A stretch of 7,700 bases of DNA from a virus (taxonomy: Duplodnaviria; Heunggongvirae; Uroviricota; Caudoviricetes), in the IMG/VR virus record IMGVR_UViG_2529292718_000010. The stretch is one strand, 5' to 3'. The notes below the pieces were generated by a model. That model had not been told where the DNA came from. It made no database searches and saw only the letters and a program-made list of their open reading frames with translations. The translations under genes were made by a program, and so were the position numbers. Every line of letters begins with the position of its first letter. Position 1 is the first letter of the stretch. Below are positions 1-7,700 of the stretch, in pieces.

Positions 1-851
1 TCCTGCGTGAAGCGCTGTTCCGGTGTCTGCCTGAACTGGCGAAGTTCTCGCCTGTCAGCAACGTCAGCCATCCACTGCTCCAGTAGCTGGTTAACATGGG
101 CGAAGCTGTCGAACCGGCGGTACCGGACGAAGAAGTTTTCCTTGAGGTATTTCACCATCCGTTCAACCTTACCTTTGGTTCTGGCCCTTCGTGGACGGCA
201 GGCCCGTGGCAGGAAGCCATAGTGATCGGCCAGCAGCAGGAACCCGGAGTTGAACACCACCTTCCCATTGTTATTTTTCAGAACTGCGGCTTTCTGGTTA
301 TCGACCAGCACGGTTTTCACGCTACCGCCGAAGTAGCGAAAGGCGCGGACCAGTGACTCATAGGTATGTTCAGCATCCTGCTTTGGTGCCGCGAAGACAT
401 GGAAGCGACGTGAGAACCCCAGCGTATTAACCGCGAAGTTAACCCTGCATCGTTGCCCGGCAACCTCAGCCTCAACTTCTCCCCAGTCATGCTGTAGCTG
501 GTAACCGGGCTGAGTTTCGAAGCGAACCGTTTTCTTCGATGGCCGCATCTTACGTTTGGGCTGGATGTAGTAGCGCAACATGGAACGGCCACCGGTATAA
601 CCCATCGCTTTGATTTCCGCCAGGATGACCTCGCCGTTCCAGACGTTCTCAGCCAGACGCATATCTATATAGTCCATGAACGGCTTGAGTTTGGCCATTT
701 TGTGGCGTGTTTTTCTGGCCGGAGGTTCCGGGTATTTCAGGTACCGTCTGACGGTCCGCTCAGAGCAACCAACCTGAGTGGCAATATCAACAATATACGC
801 ACCTTGCTGGCGCATTTGCTTTATCATGTAAAAATCCTCTCTGCTCAGCAT
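1..851 (-). CDS. istA: IS21-family transposase IstA, N-terminal 283 codons (3' end outside window)
   Basis: Manual minus-strand translation: MLSREDFYMIKQMRQQGAYIVDIATQVGCSERTVRRYLKYPEPPARKTRHKMAKLKPFMDYIDMRLAENVWNGEVILAEIKAMGYTGGRSMLRYYIQPKRKMRPSKKTVRFETQPGYQLQHDWGEVEVAGQRCRVNFAVNTLGFSRRFHVFAAPKQDAEHTYESLVRAFRYFGGSVKTVLVDNQKAAVLKNNNGKVVFNSGFLLLADHYGFLPRACRPRRARTKGKVERMVKYLKENFFVRYRRFDSFAHVNQLLEQWMADVADRRELRQFRQTPEQRFTQ... with no stop. N-terminal HTH followed by a DDE-type core is typical of IstA. Missing from the ORF track only because no stop codon lies in the window. Confidence 0.8.
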   Translation of the reverse strand, partial: MLSREDFYMIKQMRQQGAYIVDIATQVGCSERTVRRYLKYPEPPARKTRHKMAKLKPFMDYIDMRLAENVWNGEVILAEIKAMGYTGGRSMLRYYIQPKRKMRPSKKTVRFETQPGYQLQHDWGEVEAEVAGQRCRVNFAVNTLGFSRRFHVFAAPKQDAEHTYESLVRAFRYFGGSVKTVLVDNQKAAVLKNNNGKVVFNSGFLLLADHYGFLPRACRPRRARTKGKVERMVKYLKENFFVRYRRFDSFAHVNQLLEQWMADVADRRELRQFRQTPEQRFTQ

Positions 852-952
852 GAGTGTTCCCTTTGTGGTGTAGGAACCTTAAGGAAACAACATGTTGGGT
901 GGAGCGGACAATCCAAATGGTGAATTACTGTCTTATATCATTGGCGCTGACA
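1..952 (-). mobile_element. IS21-family insertion sequence, partial (left end plus 5' part of istA); continues beyond window start
   Basis: Minus-strand translation from ATG at 851 is open for 283 codons to the window edge and reads as IstA-like transposase (see istA feature). The non-coding end 852-952 terminates with TGTCAG on the minus strand exactly where integrase homology stops. Outer boundary is approximate (about +/-10 bp). Confidence 0.7.
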
Positions 953-1945
953 TAATGGGACGCCTGACTGAATCAGCCAGCTTGCCCAGGTGTGTCTGAG
1001 GTCATGGAAACGGAAATCTTCAATTCCTGCACGACGACAAGCTGATAGCCATGATGTCTTGCTGTCGATGCGCATCTTCCTGACCGCAGGCGTTGATGTT
1101 CCATCTGCTCGCTTAGCCGCCTTGGTATGTACAAACACCCATTTGTGATGCTTGCCTATTTGATCACGCAACACTTTACAGGCGGTATCGTTCAGCGCCA
1201 CACCAATGGCGCGGTTTGATTTGCTCTCTTCTGGATTCACCCAGGCAACTCGTCGCTGCATGTCGATTTGTTGCCATTCCAGATTTATGATGTTCGACTT
1301 TCTCAGACCAGTTGCCAGCGCAAACTTGACGACAGATTTCAGTGGTTCGGGGCACTCATCAATAAGGCGTTTTGCTTCCTCCTTTTCCAGCCATCTGACT
1401 CGCTTGTTTCTGACCGCTGGTATCTTGATGACAGGCGCTTTTTCCAGCCACTTCCAGTCGCGTTCTGCAGCACGGAGAATGGCCTTTATCATGGCAAGAT
1501 GCTTTGCCTTTGTCTGAGTTGATACTGGCTTTGGTTCATAAACAGGCGGTTCTTTACCTTTCCTGATGGCGGCCTGAACTTTCTGTTTCCATATTTCTTT
1601 CGTCTTTCTGTTATGCATTCTGCTTACAGCAGAGTAAATCTTTGCCTCCGAGATATCTTTAAGCCTTATACCCTCAAAATGTTCAAGCCAGAACTCAATC
1701 CGGCTTTTATCTGAATCGAGAGATTTTTTATCAGCTTTTTCCTCAAGCCATCTTAGGCAGGCCTCTTCAAAAGTGACATCAGGTAAATCCCCTAGCTTTT
1801 CTACTCGCCAGAGTTCTGCTTTTCGCTTGTCGTGCAACTCCTGAGCTTGCCGCTTGTCCTTTGTGCCAAGAGATTCCTTAATTCGTTTCCCGCCCGGGAG
1901 CGAATACGAGGCATACCATATTTCATTTCTGCGGAAGAGTGACAT
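938..1945 (-). pseudogene. intD: Phage tyrosine integrase (DLP12 IntD-like), 3'-truncated by the IS21-family insertion
   Basis: 335-aa ORF with a phage-integrase N-terminus ([34 protein letters not shown]...) and the conserved [18 protein letters not shown] box, then only CQRQ-stop, which is read from IS sequence. The downstream LLGH...Y catalytic tyrosine segment is absent. Strong RBS (AGAGGAAAG) before the ATG at 1945. The intD symbol is by family and context, not verified. Confidence 0.85.
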
Positions 1946-2172
1946 TTTCTTTCCTCTGTTATGCCATCACCCGCGCTCACCTGGACAGTATGCAGCGGAG
2001 ACTGAAGCGCCGCAATGCAGGCTTGCCGTGTTGTGAGGTAAGGAGATTTTGGCTTGGTTGGATCTTTACGTGTTGCCTGTAGGCGGCCTGTTCGTATCCA
2101 GTTGGTGGCGGTTGGTCTGGATATCTTAAGAAACTGACAGGCCTCATCGAGTGTGAGGCTGTATGATTCCAT
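1801..2172 (-). CDS. xis: Excisionase-like protein (lambda Xis-type), 123 codons with an unusually long C-terminal extension
   Basis: ORF-track 133-aa ORF trimmed to the Met with a good RBS (AGAGGT, 5 nt spacing): [31 protein letters not shown]... resembles the lambda Xis N-terminal pattern. Lies immediately upstream of int on the same strand. The 3' end overlaps int by 145 bp. Confidence 0.6.
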
Positions 2173-2422
2173 GGTTACCTCTGCTTTTTGAACGCATGTC
2201 ACGTAACTTCTTAATGTGTTCTGCCGTTTCGATCTCTTCTGCTATCCGATCTGCATCAGCTTTATTCACAGGTTCAAAGTCATGATTAAAGCGGAACATG
2301 CTGGCGATACATGTTCTGCCTTTTCGGATGTAGTGAACTTTGTTGTGGGTAGAACGCAGGATTTTGCAGGGAGTGCCGTGGTGGTCGACGTACCAGGTGT
2401 TAGGCAAAATGATTCTGAACAT
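2144..2422 (-). CDS. Hypothetical small protein (92 aa), first gene of the ORF92-xis-int string
   Basis: ORF MFRIILPNTWYVDHHGTPCKILRSTHNKVHYIRKGRTCIASMFRFNHDFEPVNK... with RBS AGGTG 5-6 nt upstream of the ATG. Overlaps the xis start by 29 bp, consistent with translational coupling. Family not recognised with confidence. Confidence 0.45.
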   Translation of the reverse strand: MFRIILPNTWYVDHHGTPCKILRSTHNKVHYIRKGRTCIASMFRFNHDFEPVNKADADRIAEEIETAEHIKKLRDMRSKSRGNHGIIQPHTR

Positions 2423-2435
2423 TTTTACACCTCAG

Positions 2436-2495
2436 TTGGAAGGTATGGCGAAAACACAGGTTATGTGGCTGAAAGAGGGGATTATTAAGGCGTGA
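2436..2495 (+). pseudogene. ybcO: 3' remnant of a ybcO-like (DUF1364) gene
   Basis: In-frame reading ends ...[19 protein letters not shown]-stop, matching my recollection of the YbcO C-terminus (...LEGMARTQVIWLKEGVIKA). Further upstream in the same frame the sequence is unrelated and hits a stop at 2334-2336. The stop (2493-2495) overlaps the rusA GTG start (GTGA), a typical coupled junction. Confidence 0.4.
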
Positions 2496-2854
2496 ATACC
2501 TACAGTATCACATTCCCCTGGCCTCCGAGCAATAATCGCTATTCCCGCCATAATCGCGGGCGCACGCACGTCAGCGCAGAGGGGCAGGCATACCGCGATA
2601 ACGTCGCCAGAATCATTAAAAACGCAATGCTGGATATCGGCCTGGCTATCCCTGTGAAAATCCGCATTGAGTGCCACATGCCGGATCGCCGTCGCCGTGA
2701 CCTGGATAATCTGCAAAAAGCCGCTTTTGACGCACTCACTAAAGCAGGTTTCTGGCTGGATGATGCTCAGGTCGTTGATTACCGCGTTGTGAAGATGCCT
2801 GTTACCAAAGGTGGGAGGCTGGAACTGACCATCACCGAAATGGGGAATGAATGA
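2492..2854 (+). CDS. rusA: Holliday junction resolvase RusA
   Basis: 120-aa ORF from a GTG start: [120 protein letters not shown], recognised as RusA. Length and position upstream of Q fit the nin region. Confidence 0.9.
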
Positions 2855-2991
2855 TGTTTGAGTTTAATATGGCAGAACTTCTTCGCCACCGCTGGATGCG
2901 CCTGCGCTTATATCGTTTCCCCAGTTCTGTTTTGACCGATTACCGAATACTGAGGAATTACGCCAAAACCCTGACAGGAGCAGGAGTATGA
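2851..2991 (+). CDS. ylcG: Small nin-region protein YlcG-like (46 aa)
   Basis: ATG overlaps the rusA stop (ATGA). Translation [46 protein letters not shown] matches my recollection of DLP12 YlcG. Below the ORF-track size cutoff, so found by hand. Confidence 0.6.
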
Positions 2992-3076
2992 AGTCAGAGA
3001 TAACAATCAACTAATACTGTTTTATTGATTTTTGCTTGTAATTGGCGTTCTGGTCTGATTTTTGTGGAGTAAGTTG

Positions 3077-3460
3077 ATGCGTGATATTCAGATGGTTCTT
3101 GAGCGTTGGGGAGCGTGGGCGGCTAATAATCATGAAGATGTGACCTGGTCGTCCATTGCCGCCGGTTTTAAGGGATTAATTACTTCAAAAGTAAAATCTC
3201 GCCCGCAATGTTGTGACGATGACGCGATGATCATTTGCGGGTGCATGGCCCGTCTGAAAAAGAACAACAGCGATTTGCACGATTTATTAGTAGATTATTA
3301 TGTAGTCGGTATGACATTCATGTCACTGGCAGGTAAGCATTGCTGCTCTGATGGTTATATCGGGAAAAGGTTACAGAAGGCTGAGGGCATAATTGAAGGG
3401 ATGTTAATGGCATTAGATATCCGGTTAGAGATGGATATCGTTGTTAATAACTCTAATTAA
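3077..3460 (+). CDS. quuD: Late-gene antiterminator Q (QuuD-like)
   Basis: ORF-track ORF trimmed to the ATG at 3077 with RBS GGAGTAAG: [64 protein letters not shown]... (127 aa). Cys-rich, and sits between the nin genes and the lysis cassette as in lambdoid phages. Confidence 0.85.
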
Positions 3461-3477
3461 TATGCCAATTGTTTACT

Positions 3478-3511
3478 AAAAATTATTAAAAATGGGGCGT
3501 TGAGACGCCCC
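3478..3511 (-). terminator. Intrinsic terminator for minus-strand transcription (candidate nmpC terminator)
   Basis: Stem GGGGCGT (3494-3500), loop TGAG, stem ACGCCCC (3505-3511). On the minus strand it is followed by ATTTTTAATAATTTTT. Confidence 0.45.
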
Positions 3512-3599
3512 CAAAAATAAAGGGTAATATATAACAGAAGGTTTATATAGTTAGAAGCAAGGTTGTGCTTCTAAAGGAAGTGGCTTGAGGGAGCCACTT

Positions 3600-3639
3600 A
3601 TATGTTGGGGAGGCAAAGCCTCCCGCAACATATCTTTTT
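3600..3639 (+). terminator. Intrinsic terminator for plus-strand transcription downstream of Q (tR'-like)
   Basis: 15-bp stem with one bulge (ATATGTTGGGGAGGC / GCCTCCCGCAACATAT), AAA loop, followed by CTTTTT at 3634-3639. It lies 11 bp from the nmpC stop on the opposite strand. Confidence 0.55.
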
Positions 3640-3649
3640 CGTAATCAGA

Positions 3650-4732
3650 TTAGAACTGATACACCAGACCTACAGCGACGATGTCGTCGGTATCAATACC
3701 AGCTGTTTTGGTAAACTTACTATCGTCAATTAAGTTGATTTTGTAATCAACAAAAGTGGACATGTTTTTATTAAAGTAGTAAGTAGCACCGACATCGACA
3801 TACTTGACTAAGTCTCGGTCACCATGAACACCAAGGTCTTTACCTTTTGACTGAAGGTAAGCAACAGATGGTCGCAGACCGAAGTCAAACTGATATTGTG
3901 CTACTGCTTCAAAGTTTTGTGCTTTGTTTGCAATATGGTTATTACCAAAAACGGTCATATTCTGAGTTTCAGAATATGTGGTAGCCAGATAGATATTGTT
4001 CGCATCATATTTCAGGCCTGCAGCCCATACTTCCGCATTTTTGCCGGAGGCATTGAATTTGCTCTTACCATAGGCGACCTGACCGTCAGTGCGATCTGAT
4101 TTAGCATAGGTTGCACCCACGCCGAATCCTTCATACTCATAAGTAGTGGAGAAACCGAAACCATCACCATTGGCTTCAGTTACGTCAGTGCGGTCATTTT
4201 TACCCTGATACTGAGCAGCAAAGTTCAGGCCATCGACCAGACCAAAGAAGTCGTTGTTACGATAGGTTGCAACACCAGTGGTGCGACCAGTCATGAACAC
4301 ATCTGTTTGGGTCCAGGTATCGCCACCGAATTCTGGCAGAACGTCAGTCCACGCACCGATGTCGTATGCTACCCCGTAGTTACGGCCGTAATCGATTGAG
4401 CCGTAGTCACCGAATTTCAGGCCTGCAAATGCAAGACGGGTTTTGTCTTTGGAGGAACCTTGAGATTCAGCGCGGTTGCCTTTGAATTCATATTCCCACT
4501 GACCGAAACCAGTCAGTTGATCGTTGATTTGGGTTTCACCTTTGAAGCCAAGACGGGCATAAGTAGTATCACCATCATCTGCATCGTTAGAGGAAAAGTA
4601 GTGCTTGGCATTAACTTTCCCGTACAGATCCAGCTTGTTACTGTCTTTATTATAAATTTCAGCTGCCTGAGCAGACATCGTCATCAGTACTGATGCAGCT
4701 ACAGCAGAAATTGCCACTGTTAATTTTTTCAT
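3650..4732 (-). CDS. nmpC: Phage-encoded general porin (NmpC/Lc/OmpD-type), apparently intact
   Basis: 360-aa ORF with signal peptide [23 protein letters not shown], a Gly/Tyr/Asp-rich beta-barrel composition and the C-terminal ...VGLVYQF aromatic end typical of outer-membrane porins. Located between Q and the holin on the opposite strand, as in DLP12/PA-2. Confidence 0.9.
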
Positions 4733-5320
4733 CGTGAGCCCTTTTTTTTGAACTATTATTAAAAAATGATGTCACTGCGCGATAAATATTCATCTAATCA
4801 ATGTGATTATTTCAAGATGTAAGTTTTAGTTTCTCATTTAATTTGTGAAGTAGATCTCTATTTTTATCTGAACTTTTTCTATCGAAACCTATTTATAGCT
4901 CTTATTTGAACAAAAATAAACCTATTAGCTAATTTATATTAATGGCTGTTATTTATGGGGGTTCTATAATTCGGTGGTTTAATTTAAATCAACTAAAAAT
5001 AACGCCGGAAATTATTTATTGGTTATTTGTTGAGGTTTTCTTATATATTTGTGGTGGTGTTTTGAACACTCGGTAGCATTCTCATAAATATCATTCAGTG
5101 GTTTACGTACGTAAAAAATTGGTTATGCTGTTAAGAGTGGTTACTTCGTCACACAGCTTAAACCCGCCGTCGAGCTGGTTTTTCCATTTTTTGAGTCTCG
5201 ATATTAGCTGATAACTCAATACCTGAGTTATTCACTGACTCCGAGTCTGTTACGTTTCTGCTTTTTTGCGATACGTTGTATTCCCTCAATTTACACCCGC
5301 TTTGTCTGCGAGGTGGGGTT
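4733..5320. promoter_or_regulatory. AT-rich intergenic region holding the nmpC promoter (minus) and possibly late-operon control elements (plus)
   Basis: About 590 bp of strongly AT-rich non-coding DNA between the divergent nmpC and essD starts, with no ORF of 60 aa or more. Contains a 14-bp perfect palindrome TTTACGTACGTAAA at 5102-5115. Exact promoters not resolved. Confidence 0.4.
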
Positions 5321-5536
5321 ATGAAATCCATGGATAAGTTAACAACGGGTGTCGCCTATGGCACCTCAGCAGGTAGTGCCGGTTACTGGTTTTTACAGCT
5401 GCTCGATAAAGTCACGCCCTCACAGTGGGCAGCAATAGGTGTGCTGGGTAGCCTGGTATTTGGCCTGCTGACGTACCTGACAAACCTTTATTTCAAGATT
5501 AAAGAAGATAAGCGCAAGGCTGCGAGAGGTGAATAA
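5321..5536 (+). CDS. essD: Class II holin (S21-type pinholin) with dual-start motif
   Basis: [71 protein letters not shown] (71 aa): two TMDs, the first Gly/Ala-rich. Met1/Met4 (MKSM) is the classic holin/antiholin dual start. RBS GAGGTGG. The ORF-track start at 5276 is a TTG extension. Stop overlaps the endolysin ATG. Confidence 0.9.
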
Positions 5537-6033
5537 TGCCTCCATCATTACGAAAAGCCGTTGCTGCTGCTATTGGTGGCGGAGCAATTGCTATAGCATC
5601 AGTGTTAATCACTGGCCCAAGTGGTAACGATGGTCTGAAAGGTGTCAGCTACATACCATACAAAGATATTGTTGGTGTATGGACTGTATGTCACGGGCAT
5701 ACAGGAAAAGACATCATGCTCGGTAAAACGTATACCAAAGCAGAATGCAAAGCCCTCCTGAATAAAGACCTTGCCACGGTCGCCAGACAAATTAACCCGT
5801 ACATAAAAGTTGATATACCGGAAACAACGCGCGGCGCTCTTTACTCGTTCGTTTACAACGTGGGCGCTGGCAATTTCAGAACATCGACGCTTCTTCGCAA
5901 AATAAACCAGGGCGATATCAAAGGCGCATGTGATCAGCTACGTCGCTGGACATATGCTGGCGGTAAGCAATGGAAAGGTCTCATGACTCGTCGTGAGATT
6001 GAGCGTGAAATCTGTTTGTGGGGTCAGCAATGA
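5536..6033 (+). CDS. rrrD: SAR endolysin (T4-lysozyme family, R21/RrrD-like)
   Basis: 165 aa. N-terminal signal-anchor-release domain [20 protein letters not shown], then the lysozyme core ...[25 protein letters not shown]. Codon 35 is AAA (Lys), see findings. Confidence 0.9.
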
Positions 6034-6491
6034 ACAGAGTAACCGCGATTATCTCCGCTCTGGTTATCTGCATCATCGTCTGCCTGTCATGGGCTGTTAA
6101 TCATTACCGTGATAACGCCATTACCTACAAAGCCCAGCGCGACAAAAATGCCAGAGAACTGAAGCTGGCGAACGCGGCAATTACTGACATGCAGATGCGC
6201 CAGCGTGATGTTGCTGCACTGGATGAAAAATACACGAAGGAGTTAGCTAATGCGAAAGCTGAAAATGATGCTCTGCGTGATGATGTTGCCGCTGGTCGTC
6301 GTCGGTTGCACATCAAAGCAGTCTGTCAGTCAGTGCGTGAAGCCACCACCGCCTCCGGCGTGGATAATGCAGCCTCCCCCCGACTGGCAGACACCGCTGA
6401 ACGGGATTATTTCACCCTCAGAGAGAGGCTGATCACTATGCAAAAACAACTGGAAGGAACCCAGAAGTATATTAATGAGCAGTGCAGATAG
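6030..6491 (+). CDS. rzpD: i-spanin Rz
   Basis: ATG overlaps the endolysin stop (ATGA). [55 protein letters not shown]... (153 aa): N-terminal TMD plus coiled-coil periplasmic domain, lambda Rz-like. The ORF-track start at 6018 is an upstream alternative start. Confidence 0.85.
6250..6432 (+). CDS. rzoD: o-spanin Rz1, embedded in the +1 frame of Rz
   Basis: [60 protein letters not shown] (60 aa): lipobox VVGC, proline-rich. Strong SD AAGGAG 7 nt upstream. Entirely inside Rz, the classic embedded arrangement. Confidence 0.8.
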
Positions 6492-6522
6492 AGCTGCCCA
6501 TATCGATGGGCAACTCATGCAA

Positions 6523-6816
6523 TTATTGTGAGCAATACACACGCGCTTCCAGCGGAGTATAAATGCCTAAAGTAATAAAACCGAGCAATCCATTTACGAA
6601 TGTTTGCTGGGTTTCTGTTTTAACAACATTTTCTGCGCCGCCACAAATTTTGGCTGCATCAACAGTTTTCTCCTGTCCAATTCCCGAAACGAAGAAGTGA
6701 TGGGTGATGGTTTCCTTTGGTGTTACTGCTGTCGGTTTGTTTCCAACAGTAAACGTCTGTTGAGCACATCCTGTAATAAGCATTGCCAGAGCGGCAGAAA
6801 ACAACATTTTTTTCAT
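6523..6816 (-). CDS. borD: Bor outer-membrane lipoprotein (serum-resistance factor)
   Basis: ORF-track 113-aa ORF trimmed to MKKMLFSAALAMLITGCAQQTFTVGNKPTAVTPKETITHHFFVSGIGQEKTVDAAKICGGAENVVKTETQQTFVNGLLGFITLGIYTPLEARVYCSQ (97 aa). Lipobox LITGC, RBS AGGA. Convergent with Rz. Confidence 0.9.
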   Translation of the reverse strand: MKKMLFSAALAMLITGCAQQTFTVGNKPTAVTPKETITHHFFVSGIGQEKTVDAAKICGGAENVVKTETQQTFVNGLLGFITLGIYTPLEARVYCSQ

Positions 6817-7175
6817 CTTATTATCCTGCATTGTTAAAAACGGCAGAATCCTATGTGACAACAATTAAACGATAGTTAAATGGATTGATGAAAATTAAAA
6901 CTATATAGGTGGATGCTCAGCCTATTGGAGGAGGGGGGCACTCAGAATCCTGTGGAATGAAATAAACCGCTCTTTCTGTCCATTACCCTTTTAGCTGCGC
7001 TGTATCGTCGCCGTATTCCCGCATTAACCATGACCGTAGCCCGACGGGGAATTCCTTCTGCGTGAGTGTGCGGGAATAATCAAAAACGATGCACACCGGG
7101 TTTTACTGTGCTGACAGACGCAGGGTTACCCTCATAGTCGCTTTTCCGGTGCGATGGTGGAAGAAACCGGGATGT

Positions 7176-7326
7176 TTATTCATCATCACTCTGGATTGAT
7201 GTATATGCTCTCTTTTCTGACGTTAGTCTCCGACGGCAGGCTTCAATGACCCAGGCTGAGAAATTCCCAGACCCTTTTTGCTCAAGAGCGATGTTAATTT
7301 GTTCAATCATTTGGTTAGGAAAGCGG
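7176..7326 (-). pseudogene. ylcI: ylcI-like (DUF3950) gene, 5'-truncated by IS1
   Basis: Minus-strand reading from the IS1 junction: ...(I)RFPNQMIEQINIALEQKGSGNFSAWVIEACRRRLTSEKRAYTSIQSDDE-stop. This matches my recollection of the YlcI/YnfO family motif NIRFPNQMIEQINIAL.QKGSGNFSAWVIEACRRRL. The first ~18 codons are replaced by IS1 starting at 7327. Confidence 0.5.
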
Positions 7327-7349
7327 GGTAATGACTCCAACTTATTGAT
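7327..7349. repeat. IS1 terminal inverted repeat
   Basis: GGTAATGACTCCAACTTATTGAT matches the canonical IS1 end sequence. Confidence 0.85.
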
Positions 7350-7700
7350 AGTGTTTTATGTTCAGATAATGCCCGATGACTTTGTCATGCAGCTCCACCG
7401 ATTTTGAGAACGACAGCGACTTCCGTCCCAGCCGTGCCAGGTGCTGCCTCAGATTCAGGTTATGCCGCTCAATTCGCTGCGTATATCGCTTGCTGATTGC
7501 GTGCAGCTTTCCCTTCAGGCGGGATTCATACAGCGGCCAGCCATCCGTCATCCATACCACGACCTCAAAGGCCGACAGCAGGCTCAGAAGACGCGCCAGT
7601 GTGGCCAGAGTGCGTTCACCGAAAACGTGCGCCACAACTGTCCTCCGTATCCTGTCATACGCGTAAAACAGCCAGCGCTGACGTGATTTAGCACCGACGT
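7342..7700 (-). CDS. insB: IS1 transposase InsB, C-terminal part (5' end outside window)
   Basis: Minus-strand frame is open from the window end to the stop at 7342-7344: ...[118 protein letters not shown]. The ORF-track 97-aa ORF is its 3' part starting at an internal GTG. Several substitutions versus the IS1 InsB I recall. Confidence 0.85.

Follow-up and report, generated by a model that had tools for sequence, protein, structure and literature searches.

An IS1 element truncates ylcI in a DLP12-type cryptic prophage of Escherichia coli

Within the window analysed here (the whole stretch of 7,700 nt), ylcI, a gene of a DLP12-type cryptic prophage, is cut inside its fifteenth codon by the right inverted repeat (IRR) of an IS1 element, and a simple insertion of IS1 into ylcI is the explanation favoured, with modest confidence. 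The joint lies at nt 7326/7327, where the plus strand reads ...CATTTGGTTAGGAAAGCGG directly followed by GGTAATGACTCCAACTTATTGATAG.... In a megablast comparison of nt 6900–7700 with 5,426 complete E. coli genomes, many of the genomes gave 100% identity to query positions 1–427 (window 6900–7326) at an intact ylcI locus; all such matches ended exactly at nt 7326, and all were annotated as "ylcI: YlcI/YnfO family protein". In the uninterrupted strain 99-3165 the sequence ...GGAAAGCGG runs on into ATGTTGCGGG..., whereas in the window ...GGAAAGCGG is followed by GGTAATGACT.... The native continuation of GGAAAGCGG in 99-3165, ATGTTGCGGGTTGTTGTTCTGCGGGTTCTGTTCTTCGTTGACAT, is the reverse complement of the start of ylcI, which on the coding strand reads ATG TCA ACG AAG AAC AGA ACC CGC AGA ACA ACA ACC CGC AAC AT(C). 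The first-pass annotation of this DNA had described a ylcI-like gene truncated by IS1, and these matches bear it out. It had also named the right codon at the junction, that for Ile, but the break does not follow this codon; it falls between its second and third base.

When the truncated integrase encoded in the window was looked up by exact match, the stretch proved to be a complete draft contig, AQDE01000020.1 (7,700 bp), of assembly GCA_000355455.2. IS fragments terminate this contig at both ends, ISEc62 on the left and IS1 on the right and, since the window is an entire contig, each end shows where assembly halted within a multi-copy IS. The segment from intD to ylcI::IS1 was also present in near-identical short contigs of GCA_000356685.2 and GCA_049980005.1, the latter having an unrelated accession prefix. 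Both contain the 40-mer that spans ylcI and IS1, and they extend past the joint into IS1 by 111 nt and 76 nt, respectively, before the contig ends. The same joint in three assemblies indicates that the junction is real and that it marks a small lineage. Exact look-ups of the truncated integrase and of the 57-aa ORF at the junction (see below) returned only short contigs ending in IS1 or ISEc62, while that of the partial InsB returned only AQDE01000020.1. The ylcI::IS1 junction occurs in no complete RefSeq E. coli genome, and pattern scans of the JGI metagenomes and of the GTDB species representatives gave no match to it.

The intact ylcI gene has 64 codons, and the window retains its 3' part (nt 7176–7326, minus strand), beginning with the third base of codon 15, ending with the stop and encoding residues 16–64. 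Because the break lies inside codon 15, the first 44 nt of ylcI have been displaced or lost along with all of the DNA before them. Compared with K-12 ylcI, codons 1–14 and two bases of codon 15 are gone; the fragment has neither a start codon nor the sequence before it, it lacks residues 1–14, and in place of a complete ORF of ~64 aa with the conserved basic N-terminus MSTKNRTRRTTTRNIRFPNQ the window has IS1 sequence where residues 1–14 would stand. The DUF3950 model spans residues 21–49 of the intact protein and is wholly kept. A minus-strand ORF (nt 7176–7340), which starts at a TTG inside IS1 sequence and has the product ...RFPNQMIEQINIALEQKGSGNFSAWVIEACRRRLTSEKRAYTSIQSDDE, matches Pfam DUF3950 (PF13132) with E=1.5e-20 and 73.2 bits (cut-off 25), so that the family assignment made from the reading frame alone, which the absence of a database match to DUF3950 would have refuted, is upheld. 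The ylcI gene of K-12 DLP12 (b4589) and ynfO of Qin belong to the same family as the window fragment. In the ylcI region the window matches the remnant of DLP12 type found in ETEC-type strains at 100%, compared with 94.6% for K-12 over 168 nt.

Two chimeric ORFs run across the joint. The GenBank record contains a gene call for a 57-aa product (nt 7176–7349, minus strand), also called in the contig of GCA_000356685.2, which is made up of 8 residues encoded by the IRR, a Pro from the codon that spans the junction, and then YlcI residues 16–64. This CDS, whose coordinates are those given in the first-pass annotation, overlaps the stop codon of insB and starts at a non-canonical codon within the IRR; it is probably an annotation artefact. 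The chimeric ORF of 54 aa had no exact protein match. Both ORFs would be by-products of the insertion. A hybrid outward promoter at the IS1 end that might drive the ylcI remnant was considered and rejected, as no outward, sigma-70-like promoter site was seen on the strand reading from the IS1 end into the remnant. Close members of the family hardly vary in the N-terminal stretch that was removed, MSTKNRTRRTTTRNI; for this reason, and given the lack of an outward promoter-like site, ylcI appears from its sequence to be a pseudogene that has lost its function, even though the DUF3950 domain itself is retained.

The 44-aa product that begins at an internal ATG of ylcI was rejected as a marker of truncation since gene calls for it exist in many genomes, and contigs that start near it stop within ylcI itself, not in IS1. 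Many draft contigs of other strains (L004–L010) have their breakpoint in the conserved 5' portion of ylcI, because ylcI/ynfO is presumably repeated among lambdoid prophages. Two contigs (L002 and L003, ~9940–10000) show a 1-nt deletion in the N-terminal codons of the gene.

No functional data on ylcI or DUF3950 were found in the literature, and an intact YlcI homologue was assigned to PHROG 949, which is annotated as "unknown function". There are no sequence relatives of YlcI in the PDB, and no sequence match to the ribbon-helix-helix (RHH) families of Pfam was obtained. The YlcI/YnfO sequences follow a pattern of a basic arm, R-F-P, a helix, GSGNFS and a second helix. As modelled by AF2, a YnfO-like homologue (mean pLDDT 68) has a coil at residues 1–18 and helices at 19–32 and 34–52. 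Taken together, the pattern and this model, which is of modest confidence, suggest that YlcI could be ribbon-helix-helix-like, the predicted fold being compatible with an RHH monomer. A Foldseek search of the PDB with the AF2 model gave nothing at E<1; the weak matches include the regulator Reg576 (6gyg).

The element that interrupts ylcI is represented by its IRR-proximal 374 bp (nt 7327–7700, minus strand), the remainder lying beyond the contig end. Its IRR, GGTAATGACTCCAACTTATTGAT (nt 7327–7349), which the first-pass annotation had recognised as beginning at nt 7327, is the exact canonical sequence and is identical to the IRR of K-12 IS1A and to those of full-length copies in 99-3165. Next to it lies the 3' part of insB (nt 7342–7698, minus strand), 118 codons and a stop, which continues as an open frame to the edge of the contig; the translated fragment matches DDE_Tnp_IS1 (PF03400) with E=3e-50. 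The stop codon is at nt 7342–7344, and the insB/DDE_Tnp_IS1 coding region ends ~15 bp inside the IRR. Over the 374 bp that are visible, identity to copies in ETEC-type strains (O6:H16 strains, 99-3165 and others) is 100%, and the copies of identical sequence in 99-3165 are complete elements of 768 bp with 9-bp target site duplications (TSDs) and an annotated programmed frameshift.

The InsB sequence had been suspected of belonging to a divergent isoform, and this holds: 10 of its 118 visible residues differ from K-12 IS1A (91.5% protein identity), as do 22 of the 374 nt, and the 374 bp of the window are 94.1% identical to IS1A and to IS1F alike. For a full-length comparison, a 768-bp copy from 99-3165 (L016 4101–4868) was aligned with IS1A, IS1F and an IS1B-type copy, which gave identities of 96.4% to K-12 IS1A, 96.1% to the IS1B-type copy and 93.4% to K-12 IS1F. 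Almost all of the 28 differences from IS1A (about 27) fall in positions 262–538, where only 4 differences separate the isoform from IS1F. The isoform is therefore a mosaic, IS1A/B-like at positions 1–261 and 539–768 and IS1F-like at 262–538, and RefSeq labels it simply 'IS1 family transposase'. A query made from its distinctive central patch, chosen to exclude IS1A/B-type copies although it would also pick up those of IS1F type, retrieved 652 records at ≥99% identity, ETEC H10407 among them, and found at least 40 matching places in the chromosome of 99-3165 alone. The isoform is widespread, not rare, and is present in hundreds of public genomes.

The prophage itself shows a DLP12-type gene order, with ORFs and Pfam families corresponding to int-xis...rusA-ylcG-quuD-porin-essD-rrrD-rzpD/rzoD-bor-ylcI. 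The closest complete genome, that of 99-3165 (NZ_CP029981.1), matches window nt 952–7326 over 6,375 nt with 5 mismatches and no gaps (99.92% identity), so that the two are collinear from inside intD to inside ylcI. From the left, the 99-3165 remnant comprises a tRNA-Arg, full-length intD, rusA, ylcG, quuD, the porin gene, essD, rrrD and rzpD, and it continues to the right with iss/bor, ylcI, nohD, tail-fibre fragments, appY, an IS1 of the mosaic isoform, and ompT. It differs from the window in having neither ISEc62 in intD nor IS1 in ylcI, its own mosaic-isoform IS1 lying in the last codons of appY. Collinearity with K-12 DLP12 is in blocks, and ybcV and ybcW are absent between bor and ylcI. 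In both the window and K-12 DLP12, ylcI is on the same strand and is positioned after bor and before nohD (by the order of 99-3165).

Several differences from K-12 lie away from the junction. The porin block of the window is ~91% identical to that of K-12, and the nmpC-type porin gene (nt 3650–4732, minus strand; 360 aa) is intact, while its counterpart in K-12 DLP12 is interrupted by IS5. Between xis and rusA (nt 2040–2437), the window is without the exoD...ybcO segment of K-12 (IS3, emrE and ybcK–ybcO), which is replaced, as in 99-3165, by a DUF4222 ORF (nt 2144–2422, minus strand).

At the left end of the window, nt 1–951 are the end of an ISEc62 element, identified by 99–100% matches to annotated ISEc62 istA copies and by the gene call for a protein with an rve domain; the reading of this end as an IS21-family element was correct. 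ISEc62 has cut intD (nt 938–1945, minus strand) at its 3' end, collinearity with the full-length intD of 99-3165 beginning at nt 952. The truncated integrase has 335 aa, of which 331 are native codons and 4 are IS-encoded, the last 56 intD codons having been replaced. As with the IS1 joint, the ISEc62/intD junction was found in no complete RefSeq E. coli genome.

From the presence of ISs at both ends, it had been proposed that IS1 forms the right-hand boundary of the prophage remnant and that a core of ~6.4 kb is bracketed by the two elements. As worded, neither statement finds support, because the window is a whole contig and the DLP12-type remnant in 99-3165 extends past both IS positions, on the right through nohD, the tail-fibre fragments and appY. 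The 6.4 kb are thus the part of an ~11-kb remnant enclosed by two insertion points, and not a unit defined by ISs. A composite transposon was rejected since the elements belong to different families (ISEc62, of the IS21 family, on the left and IS1 on the right) and, to our knowledge, two different ISs are unable to act jointly as a composite element. The apparent boundary and bracket are unproven and are largely an effect of assembly; a short draft contig ending in IS fragments mimics an "IS-bracketed island" because assemblers stop in repeats.

On the favoured explanation, a mosaic IS1, of the isoform that has reached dozens of copies in ETEC-type E. coli, would have inserted itself in codon 15 of ylcI. 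This small gene of the DUF3950 family has bor/iss on one side and nohD on the other within a DLP12-type cryptic prophage of an E. coli strain. The IRR of the element faces the body of ylcI, and its transposase genes are read in the direction of ylcI; the insertion would have cut the last 49 codons off from the start codon, ribosome-binding site, promoter and 14 conserved N-terminal residues. Such an event would have duplicated the 9 bp adjoining the IS1 end, GGAAAGCGG (nt 7318–7326), of which one copy is read on the contig and the second would be expected beyond its end, where ...GGCAGCATCACC of the left inverted repeat (IRL) would be joined to GGAAAGCGGATGTTGCGGG. In that case a different contig of the draft would carry the 5' end of ylcI together with nohD and the remaining prophage DNA, and the end of the present contig at IS1 would reflect the inability of the assembler to cross a multi-copy repeat. 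A pattern scan of the JGI metagenomes for this reciprocal junction, in which a TSD of 7–13 bp was allowed, gave no match, and the far side of IS1 was likewise not recovered from the complete E. coli genomes, the GTDB representatives or the exact protein look-ups. An active source for the transposition would be plentiful, given the number of patch matches in 99-3165 and the 100% patch identity seen in many strains; such abundance is what continued transposition would produce.

Inspectable IS1 insertions near this site were simple in three out of three cases, each with a 9-bp TSD. In 99-3165 (NZ_CP029981.1) an IS1 (L016 4101–4868) occupies the last codons of appY (4864–5604) and is flanked by the TSD TGTTTATTC. 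In strain Ec-RL2-1X an IS1A (L020 6566–7333; TSD ACCTGCGTC) lies in the spacer between ylcI and nohD, 93 bp upstream of the ylcI start codon, and in a K-12 derivative (CP010440) an IS1A (L021 2260–3027; TSD GCCGAAAGG) is inserted in nohD. The insertions in Ec-RL2-1X and CP010440 are independent events, and both are oriented like the IS1 of the window. The ylcI–nohD area may be a recurrent target of IS1. The insertion in appY alters the C-terminus of AppY, from ...GINKTID-stop in K-12 to ...GINR-stop in 99-3165.

A less probable account, which we regard as possible but unlikely, is that IS1 has removed the right arm of the remnant, either by deletion or by IS1–IS1 recombination with the appY copy. 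One possibility is an intramolecular attack on ylcI by the IRR of the appY copy, with an adjacent deletion resulting from abortive or replicative transposition; the other is recombination of the appY copy with a new insertion in ylcI. By either route ~4.8 kb would be removed, comprising the 5' end of ylcI, nohD, the tail-fibre fragments and appY, and the product would be a single IS1, without a TSD, between the ylcI remnant and the ompT side. The geometry in 99-3165 is that needed for adjacent deletion or IS1–IS1 recombination: the appY copy is 100% identical to the window IS1 over 374 bp, is oriented alike and lies 4.8 kb away with its IRR facing ylcI. Its IRR junction reads ...TGTTTATTC followed by GGTAATG or, in window orientation, ...AATGGAATAAACA followed by GGTAATGACTCC, and the flank of this copy on the ompT side is AACATTATCAGTCAATTGTTTTGTTTATTC.

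Deletions starting from an exact IS1 end have been documented in E. coli (PMC10569738). In that study a 4.3-kb deletion directly follows the IRR of one IS1X2 copy, and deletions of nfsB and of wzi–wzc adjoin IS1X2, which the authors interpreted by an abortive-transposition model (PMC10569738). The present case resembles those deletions in that a gene is cut exactly at the IRR and a close relative has an IS1 in the same orientation downstream, and it differs from them in that no missing DNA is evident and the far side of IS1 is off the contig. Identity with the appY copy was rejected as evidence for a local deletion, because no fewer than 40 sites of the 99-3165 chromosome share the distinctive patch and the identity is accordingly not discriminating. 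Further, the appY copy is known from 99-3165 and may be absent from the source strain, and the simple nature of all three inspectable insertions nearby also argues against loss of the right arm. Were a deletion directed to appY nonetheless the true event, IS1 would be the real right edge of the DLP12-type remnant in this lineage, and AppY would have been lost.

Other IS1 rearrangements are improbable. If recombination between distant IS1 copies had caused an inversion or translocation, an unrelated chromosomal region would lie beyond IS1 and the 5' end of ylcI would be attached to another IS1 copy elsewhere; related strains, with dozens of IS1 copies in each genome, offer abundant substrates for such recombination, but nothing points to it directly, and a joint shared by three assemblies fits any stable event. 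That ylcI reads were chimerically joined to IS1 reads without any real insertion, as a short draft contig with repeat ends might suggest, is extremely improbable, given the identical joint in GCA_000356685.2 and GCA_049980005.1 and the exact coincidence of the break with the first IRR base of IS1.

The truncation of ylcI by IS1 is ordinary decay of a cryptic prophage driven by ISs, with element types that are already known. In IS-rich E. coli it is commonplace for IS1 to insert into genes of cryptic prophages. The biological weight of the event is small, as ylcI is without a known function and the isoform occurs in so many public genomes. The ylcI::IS1 and intD::ISEc62 junctions could nevertheless mark the lineage of the few assemblies that share both.
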